Source: Escherichia phage vB_EcoM_JE01. Taken from it: DNA of 64,000 nucleotides. The stretch is from sequence record PQ471460.1; one strand, 5' to 3'. This document shows positions 16,862-56,524 of the stretch, piece after piece; within the stretch, counting starts at the first letter, position 1; every line of letters starts with the position of its first letter. The notes under the pieces were generated by a model, which saw nothing but the letters and a program-made list of their open reading frames with translations, made no database searches and was not told the DNA's origin. The translations under genes were made by a program, and so were the position numbers.

Positions 16862-17227
16862 ATGTATATTGGTAGAAAATATGAACTTGTTCCAAGACTT
16901 ATTGATACATTTATTAATTATCGCCCGCGTTCTAATTCATCAATAGTTAAAATTATTCAAGAAAATGGCGGATGGTTTGAAGTTAAAGAAGCTTTCTTTG
17001 CTGATGGATTTAGAGTAATAAAACACATTGAATGCGCTAATGGAAAGCATTTTTACTTCAACGTCTGTGAAGACGAATTTCATTGTTTCCGCGAGTATAA
17101 AGAACTGACTTCTGAAGAAGATGAAGTCGAAGACAAGATTTCTGGCGTAACAAAAATTCACTGCATTGTAGACGAAAACAATGTAGATGAAATCATTGAA
17201 CTTTTGCGAAAAACTTTCAAAAAGTAG
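16862..17227 (+). CDS. hypothetical protein (frd.2-like position)
   Basis: 121 aa ORF. Confidence 0.5.
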   Translation: MYIGRKYELVPRLIDTFINYRPRSNSSIVKIIQENGGWFEVKEAFFADGFRVIKHIECANGKHFYFNVCEDEFHCFREYKELTSEEDEVEDKISGVTKIHCIVDENNVDEIIELLRKTFKK

Positions 17228-17256
17228 TTTACAGAAGGGTAGTAGTGTGATACTAT
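17227..17256 (+). promoter_or_regulatory. early-type promoter with inverted repeat bracketing the -10
   Basis: GTTTAC…TACTAT; GGGTA/TACCC inverted repeat around -10. Confidence 0.5.
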
Positions 17257-17281
17257 TACCCTATCAACTAAGGAGAATAAA

Positions 17282-26325: not shown

Positions 26326-26379
26326 GTTTACAAGTCCCTCGTGTTGTGTTATAGTAGACTTACTGACATAACATGAGGA
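26326..26379 (+). promoter_or_regulatory. early promoter plus leader cassette, copy A (upstream of alc)
   Basis: GTTTACAAGTCCCTCGTGTTGTGTTATAGTAGACTTACTGACATAACATGAGGA; 52/54 identical to 42019-42072. Confidence 0.6.
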
Positions 26380-26383
26380 CTTT

Positions 26384-26890
26384 ATGATGGATTTACAGCT
26401 TATTACTACTGAAATGGTCGTTGAAGCATATGGTGATACTACAGATGGGATTTCTGTATTTAAAGGAAATCGTCGAGTTGGATATATCACCGATCTTAAG
26501 AAAGATTTAGCTAAGCAAGTCAAGCGGAAAACGACCATTAAAGAATATCGAAATCGTCGTCTTGAGCAAGCCCGTGATATGCTTCCTGATGCGGTTGAGG
26601 AGATGAAAGTCTTTTTAGAAAATCAGCTTGCGAAATATGATTGTGATGTGTTCATTAATCAGACTCAACCTAATGTTCATATCAATAATTGTAAATGCTA
26701 CATCATCGTTAATCCTTTGACGGGAAAACATCGTCTTGGAATTAGTAATCCAAATCGTAGTGCATCAGATATGGCAGAAGATGTTGAGGCATGCTTTAAA
26801 ATTTCTAAATCTCCGGCTGAACATCATATTTTAATTAACGGTCTTTCTCAAGACGATATTGTAGAGGTTATTAAAACTTTATGCAATTAA
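26384..26890 (+). CDS. alc: Alc-like protein (host transcription shutoff), by size and synteny
   Basis: 168 aa ORF between rnlA and the spanin pair. Confidence 0.7.
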   Translation: MMDLQLITTEMVVEAYGDTTDGISVFKGNRRVGYITDLKKDLAKQVKRKTTIKEYRNRRLEQARDMLPDAVEEMKVFLENQLAKYDCDVFINQTQPNVHINNCKCYIIVNPLTGKHRLGISNPNRSASDMAEDVEACFKISKSPAEHHILINGLSQDDIVEVIKTLCN

Positions 26891-33060: not shown

Positions 33061-33090
33061 GTTTACAGTATGGTTCCTTTGTGATAGTAT
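33061..33090 (+). promoter_or_regulatory. early-type promoter
   Basis: GTTTAC…18 nt…TAGTAT, then AAGGAG SD and ATG. Confidence 0.5.
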
Positions 33091-33117
33091 TATCTTACAC
33101 AAACAAAGGAGAATAAA

Positions 33118-33450
33118 ATGAAAACGATTAATCTGAACGCTGCGGTTAAAACTAAATGCTTCAATGGTAAATATGATGAAACTATGTGGTTCTTAATGGC
33201 AGTTGAAGGTGATATTATTGAAGTAGAAACAACAGAAGGTATGGGAACAGATTTCACCTTTACAATTCAAGTTCATAATTTCTTTACTGGTTGGATTTAT
33301 GAATTGAATACAGTAATCGTTGGAAAAATTGAACAAAATGAATTAGGTGAATGGTATTATGTTACAGCTCGCCAACGTGCAGAACGCTTAATTGAGAAGA
33401 TGAAAAAAGTTGGCAAACTTGACATGCAGCACTGGAAAGTAGTAAAATAA
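33118..33450 (+). CDS. hypothetical protein
   Basis: 110 aa ORF with own promoter and SD. Confidence 0.5.
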   Translation: MKTINLNAAVKTKCFNGKYDETMWFLMAVEGDIIEVETTEGMGTDFTFTIQVHNFFTGWIYELNTVIVGKIEQNELGEWYYVTARQRAERLIEKMKKVGKLDMQHWKVVK

Positions 33451-37812: not shown

Positions 37813-37834
37813 AGGCCTTCGGGCCTTTAATTTT
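37811..37834 (+). terminator. rho-independent terminator
   Basis: AAAGGCC-TTCG-GGCCTTT followed by AATTTT. Confidence 0.65.
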
Positions 37835-37842
37835 ATAAATAG
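37835..37842 (+). promoter_or_regulatory. late promoter TATAAATA upstream of first Alt-like gene
   Basis: exact TATAAATA about 20 nt upstream of ATG 37862. Confidence 0.55.
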
Positions 37843-37861: not shown

Positions 37862-39958
37862 ATGATGGAACTTATTACAGAATTATTTGACGAAGATACT
37901 ACTCTTCCGATTACAAACTTAAATCCAAAGAAGAAAATACCGCAAATTTTTTCAGTTCATGTTGATGACGCAATTGAACAACCAGGCTTTCGTTTATGTA
38001 CCTATACATCTGGAGGTGATACTAATCGCGATTTAAAAATGGGCGATAAAATGATGCATATTGTTCCTTTTACATTAACTGCTAAAGGTTCAATTGCTAA
38101 ATTAAAAGGTCTCGGTCCAAGCCCAATTAATTACATCAATTCAGTTTTTACTGTTGCAATGCAGACGATGCGTCAGTATAAAATTGATGCCTGTATGCTC
38201 CGTATTCTTAAGTCTAAAACTGCTGGTCAAGCTCGACAAATTCAAGTTATTGCTGATAGACTTATCCGTAGTCGTTCAGGTGGCAGATACGTCCTTCTTA
38301 AGGAACTCTGGGATTATGATAAAAAGTATGCATATATTCTTATACATCGCAAAAATGTATCACTAGAAGACATTCCAGGAGTTCCTGAAATTAGTACCGA
38401 GCTCTTTACTAAAGTTGAATCGAAAGTCGGCGATGTTTATATCAATAAAGATACTGGAGCTCAAGTAACTAAAAATGAGGCAATTGCTGCTTCTATTGCA
38501 CAAGAAAATGATAAACGTTCTGACCAAGCTGTAATCGTTAAAGTTAAAATTTCCCGTAGAGCAATTGCACAAAGTCAGTCATTGGAATCTTCTAGATTTG
38601 AAAGTGAATTATTCCAGAAATATGAATCTACCGCAGCTAATTTCAATAAACCTGCTACAGCTCCTTTAATTCCCGAAGCAGAAGAAATGAAGCTTGGAAT
38701 TAATTCATTAGCTTCTAAAACTAAGGCAGCAAAAATTATTGCCGAAGGAACCGCAGATGAACTTCACTATGACTATAAATTCTTTTCAAAAAGTGAGGTT
38801 AATGAAGTTTCTGAAAAAATTAAAGATGTAATTCTCAATGCGATTAAAAATGAACCAACCACTTCAATAAAATGTTTAGAGAAATACGCAGCAGCTGTTA
38901 ATCAATTCTTTGAAGAATATAAAGATAATTGGCTTGATAAACATAATAAAACCCGTAAAGGACAGCCAGATGAAGTCTGGGAAGAAATAACTAAAAATTC
39001 CTGGAACGCAGCAAAAACTAAATTCCTCAAACGAATGATTTATAGCTTTTCTGGAATTGGTGCAGGTCCAATGATTGATATTACTATTGCCCGTGATGGT
39101 TCTAAATATACTCCATCGCAAAAGCGCGGCATTAGAGAGTATTGTGGATCAGGATATACTGACATCAATAATCTTCTTTTAGGCCGCTACAATCCAGAAC
39201 GATATGATGTAATGAGTGAAAAAGAAATTGAATCTGCGATAAATAATTTAGATTCAGCTTTTGAAAATGGTGACCGTATACCAGAAGGCATTACAGTTTA
39301 TCGTGCTCAAAGTATGACTGCTCCTATATACGAAGCGCTAGTTAAAAATAAAGTGTTCTATTTCAGAAATTTTGTATCTACTTCTTTAACTCCTATCATT
39401 TTTGGACGTTTTGGAATTACACATGCTGGCATCGGTCTTTTAGAACCAGAAGCTCGTAATGAATTAACAGTTGATAAAAATGAAGAAGGAATAACTATTA
39501 ATCCAAACGAAATAAGAGCGTATAAAGAAAATCCTGAATACGTTAAAGTTCAAATAGGATGGGCAATTGATGGAGCTCATAAAGTTAATGTTGTATATCC
39601 AGGAAGTCTCGGAATAGCAACAGAAGCTGAAGTTATTCTACCACGCGGATTGATGGTCAAAGTTAATAAAATAACTGATGCTTCTAATAATGACGGAACA
39701 ACATCTAATAATACAAAACTCATTCAAGCTGAAGTTATGACTACGGAAGAACTCACTGAATCGGTAATCTATGATGGAGACCATTTAATGGAAACTGGTG
39801 AAGTAGTTGCAATGACAGATGATATTGAAATAGAAGACAGAGTTGACTTTGCATCATTTGTTTCATCAAATGTTAAACAGAAAGCAGAATCATCTCTTGG
39901 AATTATTGCGTCTTGCATAGATATTACAAACATGCCTTACAAGTTCGTTCAAGGATAA
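37862..39958 (+). CDS. Alt-family ADP-ribosyltransferase paralog 1 (head-packaged)
   Basis: 698 aa; N-terminus MELITELFD…; C-terminal R…STS…E(AEVILPRG) ART signature. Confidence 0.8.
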   Translation: MMELITELFDEDTTLPITNLNPKKKIPQIFSVHVDDAIEQPGFRLCTYTSGGDTNRDLKMGDKMMHIVPFTLTAKGSIAKLKGLGPSPINYINSVFTVAMQTMRQYKIDACMLRILKSKTAGQARQIQVIADRLIRSRSGGRYVLLKELWDYDKKYAYILIHRKNVSLEDIPGVPEISTELFTKVESKVGDVYINKDTGAQVTKNEAIAASIAQENDKRSDQAVIVKVKISRRAIAQSQSLESSRFESELFQKYESTAANFNKPATAPLIPEAEEMKLGINSLASKTKAAKIIAEGTADELHYDYKFFSKSEVNEVSEKIKDVILNAIKNEPTTSIKCLEKYAAAVNQFFEEYKDNWLDKHNKTRKGQPDEVWEEITKNSWNAAKTKFLKRMIYSFSGIGAGPMIDITIARDGSKYTPSQKRGIREYCGSGYTDINNLLLGRYNPERYDVMSEKEIESAINNLDSAFENGDRIPEGITVYRAQSMTAPIYEALVKNKVFYFRNFVSTSLTPIIFGRFGITHAGIGLLEPEARNELTVDKNEEGITINPNEIRAYKENPEYVKVQIGWAIDGAHKVNVVYPGSLGIATEAEVILPRGLMVKVNKITDASNNDGTTSNNTKLIQAEVMTTEELTESVIYDGDHLMETGEVVAMTDDIEIEDRVDFASFVSSNVKQKAESSLGIIASCIDITNMPYKFVQG

Positions 39959-39961
39959 ATC

Positions 39962-42019
39962 ATGGAACTTATTACAGAATTATTTGACGGCGCTTCGGCG
40001 CCGGTTGTTAACTTAAATCCTAAGCATAAAATACCTCAAATTTTTGCTATTCAAGCAGGTGAAGAAAGCGTGCTTCCTGGATTTAGATTTTGTACATACA
40101 CCTCTGGCGGTGATACAAACAAAAACGTTAAGCCAGGCGATAAAATGATGCATATCGTAATGATAGGTGTTAATGAGAAACTATCATTAGTTAAACTTAA
40201 AAACTTGGGTGGAAATCCAATTGGTGTTATTAATGCAGTTTTTGATACTGCTCTTCAAACAATGAAACAGTATAAAATTGACGCATGCCTATTCCGCGTA
40301 CTAAAGAGTAAAACAAACGGTGCAGCTCGTCAAATGCAAGTTATTGCCGACCGTTTAGTACGTACTAAAGGAGCAGGTCGATATGTTCTTTTAAAGGAAA
40401 TCTGGGACTATGATAAGAAATATGCATATATTATGGTTTATCGTAAAAATGCCAATTTAGAAGACATTCCAGGTGTACCTCCTATTTCAACTGAGTTATT
40501 CACAAAGGTTGAATCAAAGGTTGGTGATGTTTATGTAGATGTTAAAACAGGTAATGCTGTTCCTAAAGCTGTTGCTGTTGCTGCTTCTATTGCTTTAGAA
40601 AATGATAAGCGCACGGATCAAGCTGTAATTCAAAAAACTAAAATTAGTCGTCGATTAGCAGCACAAGCTCAATATTCTACTGTCGATGCTTCACTTCAGG
40701 GTGATAGCTTCGCTGCTAAGAAATACCAAGAGTTTGAATCTAAAGTTCCGGTATATAAAGCAGAAGGACCAATGAACTCCGGCGTTATTCAGGTTGGTTC
40801 AAACTTCAGCAAAGGAGCTATCGGTGGTATGAGAAGTGCTTCTCGTTTTAAATCTAATGATTATGAACTAGAAAGCTTCCGAAATCATATTGCATTGGCT
40901 CATGCACGTTTACGTGATCCATCTATCAAGTTACAGAGCGATATAACATATCAAGGTTCTCAAGAATATTTAAAGAATAAAGAATTTTTTGATTATAAAA
41001 CTGATAAAATTTTAAGCGATCTTGCTGACATTAATATTTCTAATAGCTTTGATGTTATTAAGAAAATCGTCAATGATTTAGTTAAAGGTTCTAAAGCCAC
41101 GCCAGATGAAAAGGTAGCTATTGTTCAATTTGTCATGAATGGCGTGTATAAATTGATTAATGAGTCTGCTTCTCAAGCGTATGAATATGCAAGTACTGAA
41201 GTACCCCCAAAAGGATTAACTCAGGCTGAGTCTGATGTAATTGAAGATTATTGTGCAGATTCATATGTTGAAATGAACTCGTTCCTTTTAGGTAAACCGG
41301 ATTCTACCCGTGAAGAATATATGGAACGAGCTATTAAACACATCGAGACAATGGATTCTGCCTTTGCCAAAGGATCAGTTCTTCCTCCAGGAACTACACT
41401 TTACCGTGGGCAAGAAGTTACTTTTAAAACTTTACGTCATAATATTGAAAATAAAATGTTCTATTTCAAGAACTTCGTATCCACATCGCTTAAACCAAAT
41501 ATCTTCGGTGAGTATGGTAAAAACTATATGGCTCTAGATGATTCCAGTACAGTATTTTCTGGTGAAGGAGAAGGTTCAGTTGATGCTGAAGATTTAATGC
41601 ATATGGGTAGTCACTCTGCTTATGCGAATGAAGATGCTGAAACTAGCGTAGGTATGGTAATTAAAGGGGCTGAGCGAATTAAAGTTATCGTTCCAGGTCA
41701 TTTATCAGGATTTCCATCAGAAGCTGAAGTTATTTTACCACGTGGAATTTTGCTGAAGATTAATAAAGTGAGTACGTACATGATGAAAGAAACTGCTTAT
41801 AACAAGTATCTAATCGAAGGCACAATCGTTCCTCCTTCTGAACAATTAGAAGAATCGGTATATGATGGCGACCACCTGATGGAAACTGGTGAAGTTCGTC
41901 CAATGACTGGGTTTAATCAATTCCTTGTAGAAGAATCAAAAGAAGAGGAAAACGAAGTTTCTCAAATCTTGGCTTCTTTGATTAACATCAACGGAATGTC
42001 TAAAAAGTTCAAAATGTAG
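39962..42019 (+). CDS. alt: Alt-family ADP-ribosyltransferase paralog 2
   Basis: 685 aa; N-terminus MELITELFDGASAPVVNLNPKHKIPQIF…; R-S-E motif region (LYRGQ…FVSTSL…SEAEVILPRG). Confidence 0.8.
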   Translation: MELITELFDGASAPVVNLNPKHKIPQIFAIQAGEESVLPGFRFCTYTSGGDTNKNVKPGDKMMHIVMIGVNEKLSLVKLKNLGGNPIGVINAVFDTALQTMKQYKIDACLFRVLKSKTNGAARQMQVIADRLVRTKGAGRYVLLKEIWDYDKKYAYIMVYRKNANLEDIPGVPPISTELFTKVESKVGDVYVDVKTGNAVPKAVAVAASIALENDKRTDQAVIQKTKISRRLAAQAQYSTVDASLQGDSFAAKKYQEFESKVPVYKAEGPMNSGVIQVGSNFSKGAIGGMRSASRFKSNDYELESFRNHIALAHARLRDPSIKLQSDITYQGSQEYLKNKEFFDYKTDKILSDLADINISNSFDVIKKIVNDLVKGSKATPDEKVAIVQFVMNGVYKLINESASQAYEYASTEVPPKGLTQAESDVIEDYCADSYVEMNSFLLGKPDSTREEYMERAIKHIETMDSAFAKGSVLPPGTTLYRGQEVTFKTLRHNIENKMFYFKNFVSTSLKPNIFGEYGKNYMALDDSSTVFSGEGEGSVDAEDLMHMGSHSAYANEDAETSVGMVIKGAERIKVIVPGHLSGFPSEAEVILPRGILLKINKVSTYMMKETAYNKYLIEGTIVPPSEQLEESVYDGDHLMETGEVRPMTGFNQFLVEESKEEENEVSQILASLININGMSKKFKM

Positions 42020-42072
42020 TTTACAAGTCCCTCGTGTTGTGTTATAGTAATCTTACTGACATAACATGAGGA
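42019..42072 (+). promoter_or_regulatory. early promoter plus leader cassette, copy B
   Basis: 52/54 identical to 26326-26379. Confidence 0.6.
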
Positions 42073-42079
42073 ACACAAA

Positions 42080-42370
42080 ATGAAATCTTCTTTGCGCTTT
42101 TTAGGTCAAGAACTTGTAGTTGAAGGCGTTATTCCTGCTGATAACGCCTTTAATGAAGCAGTTTATGATGAATTTATCAAAATTTTTGGAACAGATAAAA
42201 AGTTCGGAATTTTTCCTTCTGAAAATTTTTCAAAGCCAGAGCAGACTGAAAGTATTTTCCAAGGTGTAGTAACAGGTAAATTTGAGTCAGAAGCTCCAGT
42301 AAAAATTGAAGTTTATATTGAAGACAGTTTAGTTGCTTCAGTTTCTGCTTTTATTTCATTCCGTAAATAA
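42080..42370 (+). CDS. hypothetical protein
   Basis: 96 aa ORF driven by cassette copy B. Confidence 0.5.
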   Translation: MKSSLRFLGQELVVEGVIPADNAFNEAVYDEFIKIFGTDKKFGIFPSENFSKPEQTESIFQGVVTGKFESEAPVKIEVYIEDSLVASVSAFISFRK

Positions 42371-42376
42371 AAATAT

Positions 42377-42394
42377 GGGGACCTTTCGGTCCCC
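42377..42394. terminator. bidirectional hairpin terminator between convergent genes
   Basis: GGGGACC-TTTC-GGTCCCC. Confidence 0.65.
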
Positions 42395-42398
42395 ATTG

Positions 42399-43364
42399 TT
42401 ATATTGCTCCTAATATTTTACTTTGCGAATTGACAATTCCCGTCATAGTATTAATGTTTGAAATGCTTCCTGCAGTTCCTCCTAATCTACTAAGTCGTGA
42501 AAGCGAATTAGATAGTCCAGTAACACCTCCACTATTTCCGAGAACGCTTTGAATGCCATTTATAGCAGCAGATTCAAGCCACTCAAGCGCAGCCTGTCTA
42601 TCAACTGACCCAGCCTGCATGACTCTATACGCAAAAGTAACATCAAATGTAGTTATTTGGTTATCTCCATCATATGATAACTCAGGAGCGCTCACTGACA
42701 CTGGAATGCATCCAGTGAACATCACCGCAGTATGAGGTAATCCATTACGAGCATGAAGATTAACCTGAATATCTGCCTCGACATCTTGTGGCAAAGCACG
42801 CAATCCAGTTACTGGGTCTTGAACAGCGTTAACCCAGTCTTGCATTGCACGATAATTACATGCTTCTGAATCCATTCTAAATGAAATAACCAAAGGGTCT
42901 AATTCTCTCCCAGTTATACGAATATTAGGAGAATTATAGTTCCAGTCAGTTTCATAGGATAATCTATTCTCTGGCATTTTTACAGAATATATCATCAATC
43001 CAGATGAGTTATATGCCATGTTAAAGAAGTCAATTAAATATGTACCAACTGTAAATGAGCCCAATAAACTTTGAACTGTACGTTGACTCATGGCACCAAT
43101 AAGATATTTACTAACCCCTGATTTTCTTATCAGTTTTTGTGTGCCAGCAGTAATTAGCGTGGTAATTCCCTGATTAATATCGCCTTGAGTCAATCCTAAC
43201 CATTCTGAATTTAGACCCAAGTTATTATAAGAAAAGTTGCTAATTGAACTTATCAACGAAGAGCTTTTAGTTGATGGAGTTGTCGCAAAAACGCAGCTAA
43301 ACATATTATTACGTTGGAAATCTGCGTTTATTGCTTGATTATTAAATTCCTCTAAAGAATACAT
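42399..43364 (-). CDS. 54: gp54 baseplate tail-tube initiator
   Basis: 321 aa, synteny 54-48-29. Confidence 0.88.
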   Translation of the reverse strand: MYSLEEFNNQAINADFQRNNMFSCVFATTPSTKSSSLISSISNFSYNNLGLNSEWLGLTQGDINQGITTLITAGTQKLIRKSGVSKYLIGAMSQRTVQSLLGSFTVGTYLIDFFNMAYNSSGLMIYSVKMPENRLSYETDWNYNSPNIRITGRELDPLVISFRMDSEACNYRAMQDWVNAVQDPVTGLRALPQDVEADIQVNLHARNGLPHTAVMFTGCIPVSVSAPELSYDGDNQITTFDVTFAYRVMQAGSVDRQAALEWLESAAINGIQSVLGNSGGVTGLSNSLSRLSRLGGTAGSISNINTMTGIVNSQSKILGAI

Positions 43365-56506: not shown

Positions 56507-56524
56507 AGGGACCTTTCGGTCCCT
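56507..56524. terminator. bidirectional hairpin terminator between rnlB and gene 24
   Basis: AGGGACC-TTTC-GGTCCCT followed by TTGTTTTATT. Confidence 0.65.

Follow-up and report, generated by a model that had tools for sequence, protein, structure and literature searches.

The stretch of DNA analysed here (the window) comprises 64 kb (64,000 nucleotides) of Escherichia phage vB_EcoM_JE01 (PQ471460.1), a T4-like phage of the genus Tequatrovirus, and all coordinates are window positions. Within it we studied a 96-amino-acid (aa) open reading frame (ORF), identified below as gene alt.-3, together with the 54-bp early promoter-leader that precedes it and the hairpin that separates it from the convergent baseplate gene 54. 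An initial annotation made from the sequence alone had reported the repeated promoter-leader unit, the 96-aa ORF and the hairpin, and each was found where it had been placed. A 1.4-kb stretch at the locus matched 500 phage records at 90-99% identity. The locus contains the following features:

42019..42072, + strand: cassette copy B, the 54-bp early promoter-leader from GTTTACA to GAGGA, identical to copy A (see below) at 52/54 positions
42080..42370, + strand: alt.-3 coding sequence, 96 aa, ATG start (Pfam DUF5498, phrog_1739, T4 NP_049808 at the same position)
42375..42396, both strands: two-way intrinsic terminator hairpin, ATGGGGACC-TTTC-GGTCCCCAT, 9-bp stem with 6 GC pairs
42399..43364, - strand: gene 54 (baseplate tail-tube initiator), convergent late gene, 321 aa (T4 gene 54 annotation and synteny)

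The 96-aa ORF is alt.-3 of T4, a conserved early gene that has been annotated for decades, and its identity was already known. Pfam family DUF5498 (PF17602) matched it with an E-value of 5e-64 and 213.2 bits against a cut-off of 27, residues 1-96 aligning with profile positions 1-96, and phrog_1739 matched it with an E-value of 2e-44. The product is 99% identical to T4 Alt.-3 (NP_049808, UniProt P39493), and the T4 reference record places the 291-nt alt.-3 between alt.-2 and gene 54. Alignment with T4 showed that promoter-leader, coding sequence and terminator are all shared at the locus; the coding sequence here differs from that of T4 by a few synonymous and rare non-synonymous changes, and the terminator stem exceeds that of T4 by 2 bp.

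We found essentially no presence/absence variation of alt.-3 inside Tequatrovirus. A tblastn search with Alt.-3 returned 836 phage records, each with a single copy that was always full length, and 498 of them reached at least 90% identity. The gene 54 product matched 1422 records, 499 of these at 95% identity or more. The Tequatrovirus counts are thus 498 records for alt.-3 and 499 for gene 54 at these thresholds, and 499 for the 54-bp unit. Additionally, in each of the eight lineages compared alt.-3 has alt on one side and gene 54 on the other (Tequatro-, Dhaka-, Gelderland-, Mosig-, Marfa-, Kanagawa- and Kagamiyamavirus, and phage Ursula), and its G+C content is 0.32-0.34 compared with 0.31-0.40 in the flanks. 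The initial annotation had called the gene moron-like; as a conserved T4 ORF that keeps its position without variability, in ~498/499 Tequatrovirus records and in the same slot in eight lineages, alt.-3 does not support that description. Evolution at the locus has altered the promoter-leader and the alt duplicate next to it; the gene itself has been kept.

The terminator hairpin occupies the 28-nt gap from the alt.-3 stop to the gene 54 stop (42399). Its predicted folding energy is -18 to -20 kcal/mol on either strand (z-scores -3.9 to -4.9), its U-tract is good on the - strand (the gene 54 side) and weak on the + strand, and several phage records annotate it as a terminator. It scored as a terminator on both strands, in agreement with the strong bidirectional hairpin, shared with convergent gene 54, that had been proposed. 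An Rfam scan of the window at the gathering threshold returned no family, including no group I intron, and the sub-threshold matches at the terminator were chance matches. A near-twin of this terminator stands at another gene end 14 kb away (56508-56523; GGGACCTTTCGGTCCC then TTTGTTTTATT).

The 54-bp promoter-leader shared by alt.-3 and alc

The promoter-leader of alt.-3 recurs once in the window, upstream of alc, and in both copies promoter and ribosome-binding site are linked by a long hairpin, as listed here for alc and for copy B:

26326..26379, + strand: cassette copy A, upstream of alc and directly 3' of the rnlA stop (repeat match)
26384..26890, + strand: alc (host transcription inhibitor); the T4-annotated start is the second ATG, at 26387; gene order rnlA-alc-pseT.3
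42020..42048, + strand: early sigma-70-type promoter of copy B, -35 TTTACA at 42020-42025, 17-nt spacer, TG at 42040-42041, -10 TATAGT at 42043-42048 (best match in the scan)
42030..42071, + strand: long hairpin of copy B, 14-bp stem plus 4-bp apical stem (folding compared with shuffles)

Apart from copies A and B, the window has no long pair of near-identical non-coding stretches; the chance expectation for the 63-nt pattern is 0. As the initial annotation had it, copy B follows directly on the alt stop, its first base lying inside the TAG. T4 carries both copies, before alc and alt.-3, and there they are identical at 53/54 positions. Comparison with T4 further showed that the identity between A and B begins exactly at GTTTACA and stops exactly at GAGGA, with unrelated flanks. 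Across phage records the 54-bp unit was found at 997 places in 499 records, that is, two per genome, and the best copy in each record was at least 92.6% identical to the query. A scan of IMG/VR for cassette variants returned five loci.

The + strand is the early strand of the window: the strict early-promoter pattern GTTTACA-N17-TANNNT has seven matches, all on this strand, against a chance expectation of 0.17. The alt.-3 promoter fits this pattern and is also the top sigma-70 match between 37500 and 43500 (10/12 positions). No promoter features are annotated at the cassette in the T4 GenBank records. The remaining five strict early promoters in the window have only the hexamers in common with the cassette and differ from it in spacer and leader; because the identity between A and B spans spacer and leader, the two copies are, on their sequence, a true duplication and not a consensus similarity. 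From the usual distance of 7 nt, the alt.-3 early transcript is predicted to start near A42055, and the GAGGA ribosome-binding site lies at 42068-42072.

The hairpin joins the promoter to the Shine-Dalgarno (SD) sequence. In copy B its 5' arm (42030-42043) is the -35/-10 spacer, with a one-base overlap with the -10 box, which itself lies in the upper stem; an apical stem (42046-42049 with 42054-42057) follows, and the 3' arm (42058-42071) contains the SD core GAGG. The fold was predicted at -23 kcal/mol for copy B (z-score -5.3; 0/200 shuffles as good) and at -24.4 kcal/mol for copy A (z-score -5.3). The duplex of spacer with leader at alt.-3 had -20.8 kcal/mol, a value reached by none of 2000 spacer shuffles. 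The predicted start A42055 lies inside the hairpin, so a transcript from the gene's own promoter would lack the 5' arm. Calculated costs of opening the SD-AUG region differed accordingly: for alt.-3, 14.5 kcal/mol with 150 nt of upstream context versus 2.2 kcal/mol in the own-promoter transcript, and for alc, 18.4 versus 3.4 kcal/mol. Among the 46 + strand genes of the window (median 4.7 kcal/mol), alc ranked first and alt.-3 third; rank 2 (24735) was disregarded, being an internal ATG of denA, whose annotated start is GTG. The gene for I-TevI, which served as a positive control, ranked fourth with 13.5 kcal/mol.

The I-TevI homing endonuclease ORF is intact in this phage (19459-20196, 245 aa), with a strongly occluded ribosome-binding site. 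Fifth of the 46 genes is gene 30.8 (10.3 kcal/mol), whose early promoter (33061-33120) also has a spacer complementary to its own SD (UCCUUUGU/ACAAAGGA); this case suggests that promoter-embedded gates occur beyond the alc/alt.-3 cassette too. Another strict early promoter, at 17227-17265, carries a 12-bp hairpin over its -10 region (GGGTAGTAG...CTATTACCC), in which the ribosome-binding site takes no part.

Pairing of spacer and ribosome-binding site across genera

At alc, the spacer complements the gene's own SD region in five of the six genera, despite differences in sequence. The spacer arm and SD arm of alc in these five genera are:

Tequatrovirus: CCCTCGTG.. / ..CATGAGG
Dhakavirus: TCTCCTCAT / ATGAGGAGA
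Gelderlandvirus: ATCTCCGTTT / AAACGGAGAT
Kanagawavirus: ATCCCATTTTGTTG / CAACAAAATGGGGAT, with a one-base bulge, the SD core having four G and the spacer three C
Kagamiyamavirus: ATCCTCATTTTGTTG / CAACAAAATGAGGAT

RNAalifold applied to the alc leaders returned 12 consensus pairs, five of them with changes on both sides. The duplex of spacer with leader was more stable than with shuffled spacers in five of the six genera (p <= 0.0015). Opening costs at alc ranged across genera from 7 to 18 kcal/mol in the readthrough context and from 1 to 3.5 kcal/mol in own-promoter transcripts. Inside Tequatrovirus, variants of the cassette fall mostly in the apical loop or are neutral for pairing, as with G16A (G-U to A-U), C15T (C-G to U-G) and G40A (U-G to U-A).

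In every genus alt.-3 retains an early promoter that follows immediately on the alt stop, together with the ribosome-binding stretch ATGAGGA. The long hairpin is missing from most alt.-3 promoters of other genera, which fits a copy from alc to alt.-3: judged by these sequences, the pairing of spacer and SD is probably old at alc, and the cassette was probably copied from alc to alt.-3 in an ancestor of Tequatrovirus. Two further observations concern the alt.-3 promoters of the other genera. They carry a small hairpin within the spacer whose stem covaries (CCACA/UGUGG, CACAC/GUGUG, CAUCC/GGAUG, UCCAC/GUGGA); the loci compared for it include Mosigvirus alc. Additionally, the promoter body is nearly identical in Dhaka-, Marfa- and Kagamiyamavirus, the proteins being far more diverged.

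A proposed translational gate and its alternatives

We think it fairly probable, taking the reading as a whole, that the locus consists of the conserved early gene alt.-3, a promoter-leader derived from alc that acts as a translational gate, and a shared terminator. The 54-bp alc unit would have been pasted onto alt.-3 by recombination between GTTTACA and the ACATGAGGA ribosome-binding stretch, motifs already common to the two promoters. Its -35/-10 spacer would act as an anti-SD sequence, making the cassette a promoter with a built-in translational gate. RNA derived from upstream, which in the case of alt.-3 would mean alt messages initiated at the late promoter (37834) and in that of alc rnlA and nrd transcripts, would carry both arms and form the 14 + 4 bp stem that buries the SD. 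Own-promoter RNA would start within the hairpin near A42055, lack the 5' arm and leave the ribosome-binding site open. Alt.-3 and Alc would then be made solely from their own immediate-early transcripts. Such a gate is well supported at the sequence level by the hairpin thermodynamics and by covariation at alc. A scan for + strand terminators between 37500 and 43500 found none between alt and 42375, so alt transcripts should run into alt.-3.

Published timing classes were compared with this reading. In time-resolved omics of T4, RNA and protein alike fall in the early class for alt.-3 and alc (PMC9697503 Table S2), in agreement with the early promoter that the initial annotation had assigned to the ORF. 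The same data put alt RNA in the middle class and its protein in the late class, the RNAs of alt.-1 and alt.-2 in the middle class and, upstream of alc, rnlA RNA in the early and its protein in the late class. These classes fit alt.-3 being expressed early and independently through its own promoter; they do not address the gate itself. Per-gene read counts from DksA RNA sequencing showed no clean step at alt.-3.

The closest known systems are the T4 hairpins of e, soc, 49 and I-TevI, in which the SD is buried on upstream-derived transcripts and an internal late promoter yields translatable RNA without the 5' arm (PMC3014915). As in these, the cassette has its SD buried in a predicted stable helix and an internal promoter whose transcript would lack the 5' arm, and its opening energy is comparable to that of I-TevI within the same window. 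The difference lies in timing and build. In the classic cases the internal promoter is late and early or middle readthrough is blocked, whereas that of the cassette is early and sigma-70-type, so that middle or late readthrough would be blocked; the nearest + strand late-promoter motif TATAAATA lies upstream at 37834, and none lies inside the cassette. Moreover, the anti-SD of the cassette is the -35/-10 spacer itself, unlike in e, soc, 49 and I-TevI. The cassette is better described as a variant of their theme. Neither alc nor alt.-3 appears in the list of occluding hairpins of the T4 review (PMC3014915); older T4 literature lay outside the comparison, and we make no claim of first description.

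A second family of related elements are the promoter-early stem-loop (PeSL) cassettes, ~50-bp repeats of early promoter, stem-loop, SD and start codon for which recombination has been proposed to move modules (Arbiol 2010; Comeau 2014; PMC2839356, PMC4122927). The cassette resembles them as a repeated module of early promoter and SD, and the copy from alc to alt.-3, if it occurred, would be an event of the PeSL kind. However, the stem-loop of a PeSL lies upstream of the promoter and is a terminator, whereas the cassette stem spans promoter and SD and has no terminator features; the alt stop abuts the -35 box, leaving no room for an upstream stem-loop of that type. PeSLs are also numerous, lie in hyperplastic regions and flank variable ORFans, whereas the cassette occurs in exactly two copies, 15.7 kb apart, before conserved genes and without indel polymorphism.

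Other explanations of the hairpin and of the repeat were weighed against the gate. The hairpin might act on the upstream message instead, by marking alt and rnlA transcripts for processing (for instance by RNase III), by stabilising their 3' ends or by attenuating them, its overlap with the SD being incidental. At both loci it starts ~10 nt past the upstream stop codon, its 18-bp imperfect stem is in the size range of RNase III substrates, and PeSL stem-loops do terminate upstream transcription. The cassette stem, however, is followed by no U-tract, for which reason we rejected it as a terminator, and the terminator scan does not call it. Furthermore, the SD forms the 3' arm without exception in five genera, and the spacer changes in step with the SD variants GAGG, GAGGAG, GGAG and GGGGA, as selection for SD occlusion would give; we regard an action on the upstream message as rather unlikely. 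We hold it to be quite improbable that the inverted repeat is a DNA operator, at which a dimeric protein bound to a palindrome over the -10 box would shut both promoters together. Such a role would suit two promoters of the same early class that are 96-98% identical over 54 bp in ~500 genomes, with an inverted repeat overlapping the -10 box. Yet the arm sequences vary between genera and their complementarity is kept, which is the signature of an RNA helix and not of a sequence recognised by protein, and one arm is the ribosome-binding site in all cases; we know of no candidate protein that binds the palindrome.

Two further alternatives concern the origin of the repeat. T4 early promoters share a long common consensus, and with seven strict matches in the window the two promoters might be alike through this consensus only, with no copying involved. 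The identity of the pair, however, also covers the non-consensus spacer, the flanks of the loop and the leader, and the alt.-3 promoter body differs in other genera, so that we give this explanation almost no credence. A moron origin, in which a mobile promoter cassette brought an accessory gene to the boundary between alt locus and baseplate genes, is also very improbable, if a little less so. Like a moron, alt.-3 is small, stands at the junction of two functional blocks and is served by a promoter and a terminator of its own; its promoter unit has a second copy in the genome, and PeSL-type cassettes shuffle ORFs in T4-like phages (PMC2839356, PMC4122927). But alt.-3 has neither presence/absence variation nor a compositional anomaly: it is in T4 as well as nearly all Tequatrovirus records, most of the eight lineages hold it in the same slot without this cassette, its G+C content is ordinary, and only the promoter-leader varies between genera. 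Synteny thus led us to rule this origin out.

Several points weigh against the translational gate, the history proposed for it and the role guessed for the protein. The pairing analysis found Mosigvirus alc to be without long spacer/SD pairing. Outside Tequatrovirus the alt.-3 promoters keep GTTTACA...ATGAGGA, and long-range occlusion is mostly absent from them; Kanagawavirus alt.-3 is the exception, with an occlusion of other build (14.7 kcal/mol). The gate is therefore dispensable for these genes. Within Tequatrovirus, the variants C12A and G40T each break one pair, and covariation amounts to a handful of one-sided changes. Whereas the sequences show the gene's identity and conservation, the duplication, the hairpin thermodynamics, the covariation at alc and the geometry of promoter and arms, we infer the start site, the upstream readthrough and how translation is affected; that alt transcripts run on into alt.-3 would follow only from the absence of a terminator, and the direction of copying is drawn from six to eight genera only. 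Finally, the function of Alt.-3 is a guess, our best but weak one being a non-essential early effector that binds a host protein; the wild-type protein neither triggers nor blocks the CmdTAC defence (PMC11618068).

The shared, near-identical 54-bp promoter-leader of alc and alt.-3 in ~500 genomes matters because its hairpin suggests a way of tying translation to one promoter and one time window. If true, the gate would carry over to early promoters a regulatory theme that is classic for T4 late promoters. In its most general form, an early promoter with an anti-SD spacer could be a conserved T4 gate, the mirror image of the late-promoter hairpins, that limits Alc in most Tevenvirinae genera and, as a copied 54-bp module, Alt.-3 (possibly also the product of 30.8) in Tequatrovirus; we put this forward tentatively, as a possibility. 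The finding as first submitted adds little by itself, the gene having been known in T4 for decades, and the gate is the part worth following up.

The Alt.-3 protein and the upstream alt paralogs

Alt.-3 has a mass of 10.7 kDa and an isoelectric point of 4.7, and its entire family is acidic. In an alignment of 36 homologues the C-terminal F..FR(K) is invariant. The AlphaFold2 model has a mean predicted local distance difference test score (pLDDT) of 96.1, indicating a confident fold, and comparison of this fold with solved structures returned no match. Alt.-3 is a small acidic stand-alone alpha/beta domain confined to T4-like phages. Published work shows that T4 alt.-3 can be deleted; mutants with a C-terminal extension that brings the protein to 110 or 117 aa escape CmdTAC, ClpP-dependent degradation of CmdA being prevented (PMC11618068). 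With a confident fold without a solved relative, its confinement to T4-like phages and its appearance in a defence-escape screen, the protein is a reasonable target for functional work.

Readthrough of the alt.-3 stop (42368-42433) would add 21 residues, a stop-replacing residue followed by KYGDLSVPIVILLLIFYFAN, which form a hydrophobic tail and bring the total to 117 aa. This length equals that of one published T4 CmdTAC-escape allele. The codons for these residues lie in the terminator hairpin and in the end of gene 54, which is on the opposite strand.

Upstream of alt.-3 lie two alt genes and their control region:

37814..37841, + strand: UUCG-loop terminator (AAAGGCCTTCGGGCCTTT) followed by the late promoter TATAAATA (37834-37841) of the alt genes (sequence and motif match)
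37862..39958, + strand: first alt (ADP-ribosyltransferase) paralog, full length (ORF)
39962..42019, + strand: second Alt-like ADP-ribosyltransferase paralog, 685 aa (ORF; annotation in matching records)

The tandem paralogs are 41% identical to each other, and the 54-bp unit opens with the G that closes the TAG stop of the second. This second paralog is the variable part of the locus. It was found at 90% identity or more in 398 records, compared with 499 Tequatrovirus records, and it is intact here, whereas T4 has only the remnants alt.-1 and alt.-2 upstream of alt.-3, joined to the last ~20 nt of the paralog. At the upstream end of the alt genes, the UUCG terminator and the late promoter TATAAATA insulate the late alt unit from the early ligase/alt.1 unit upstream.

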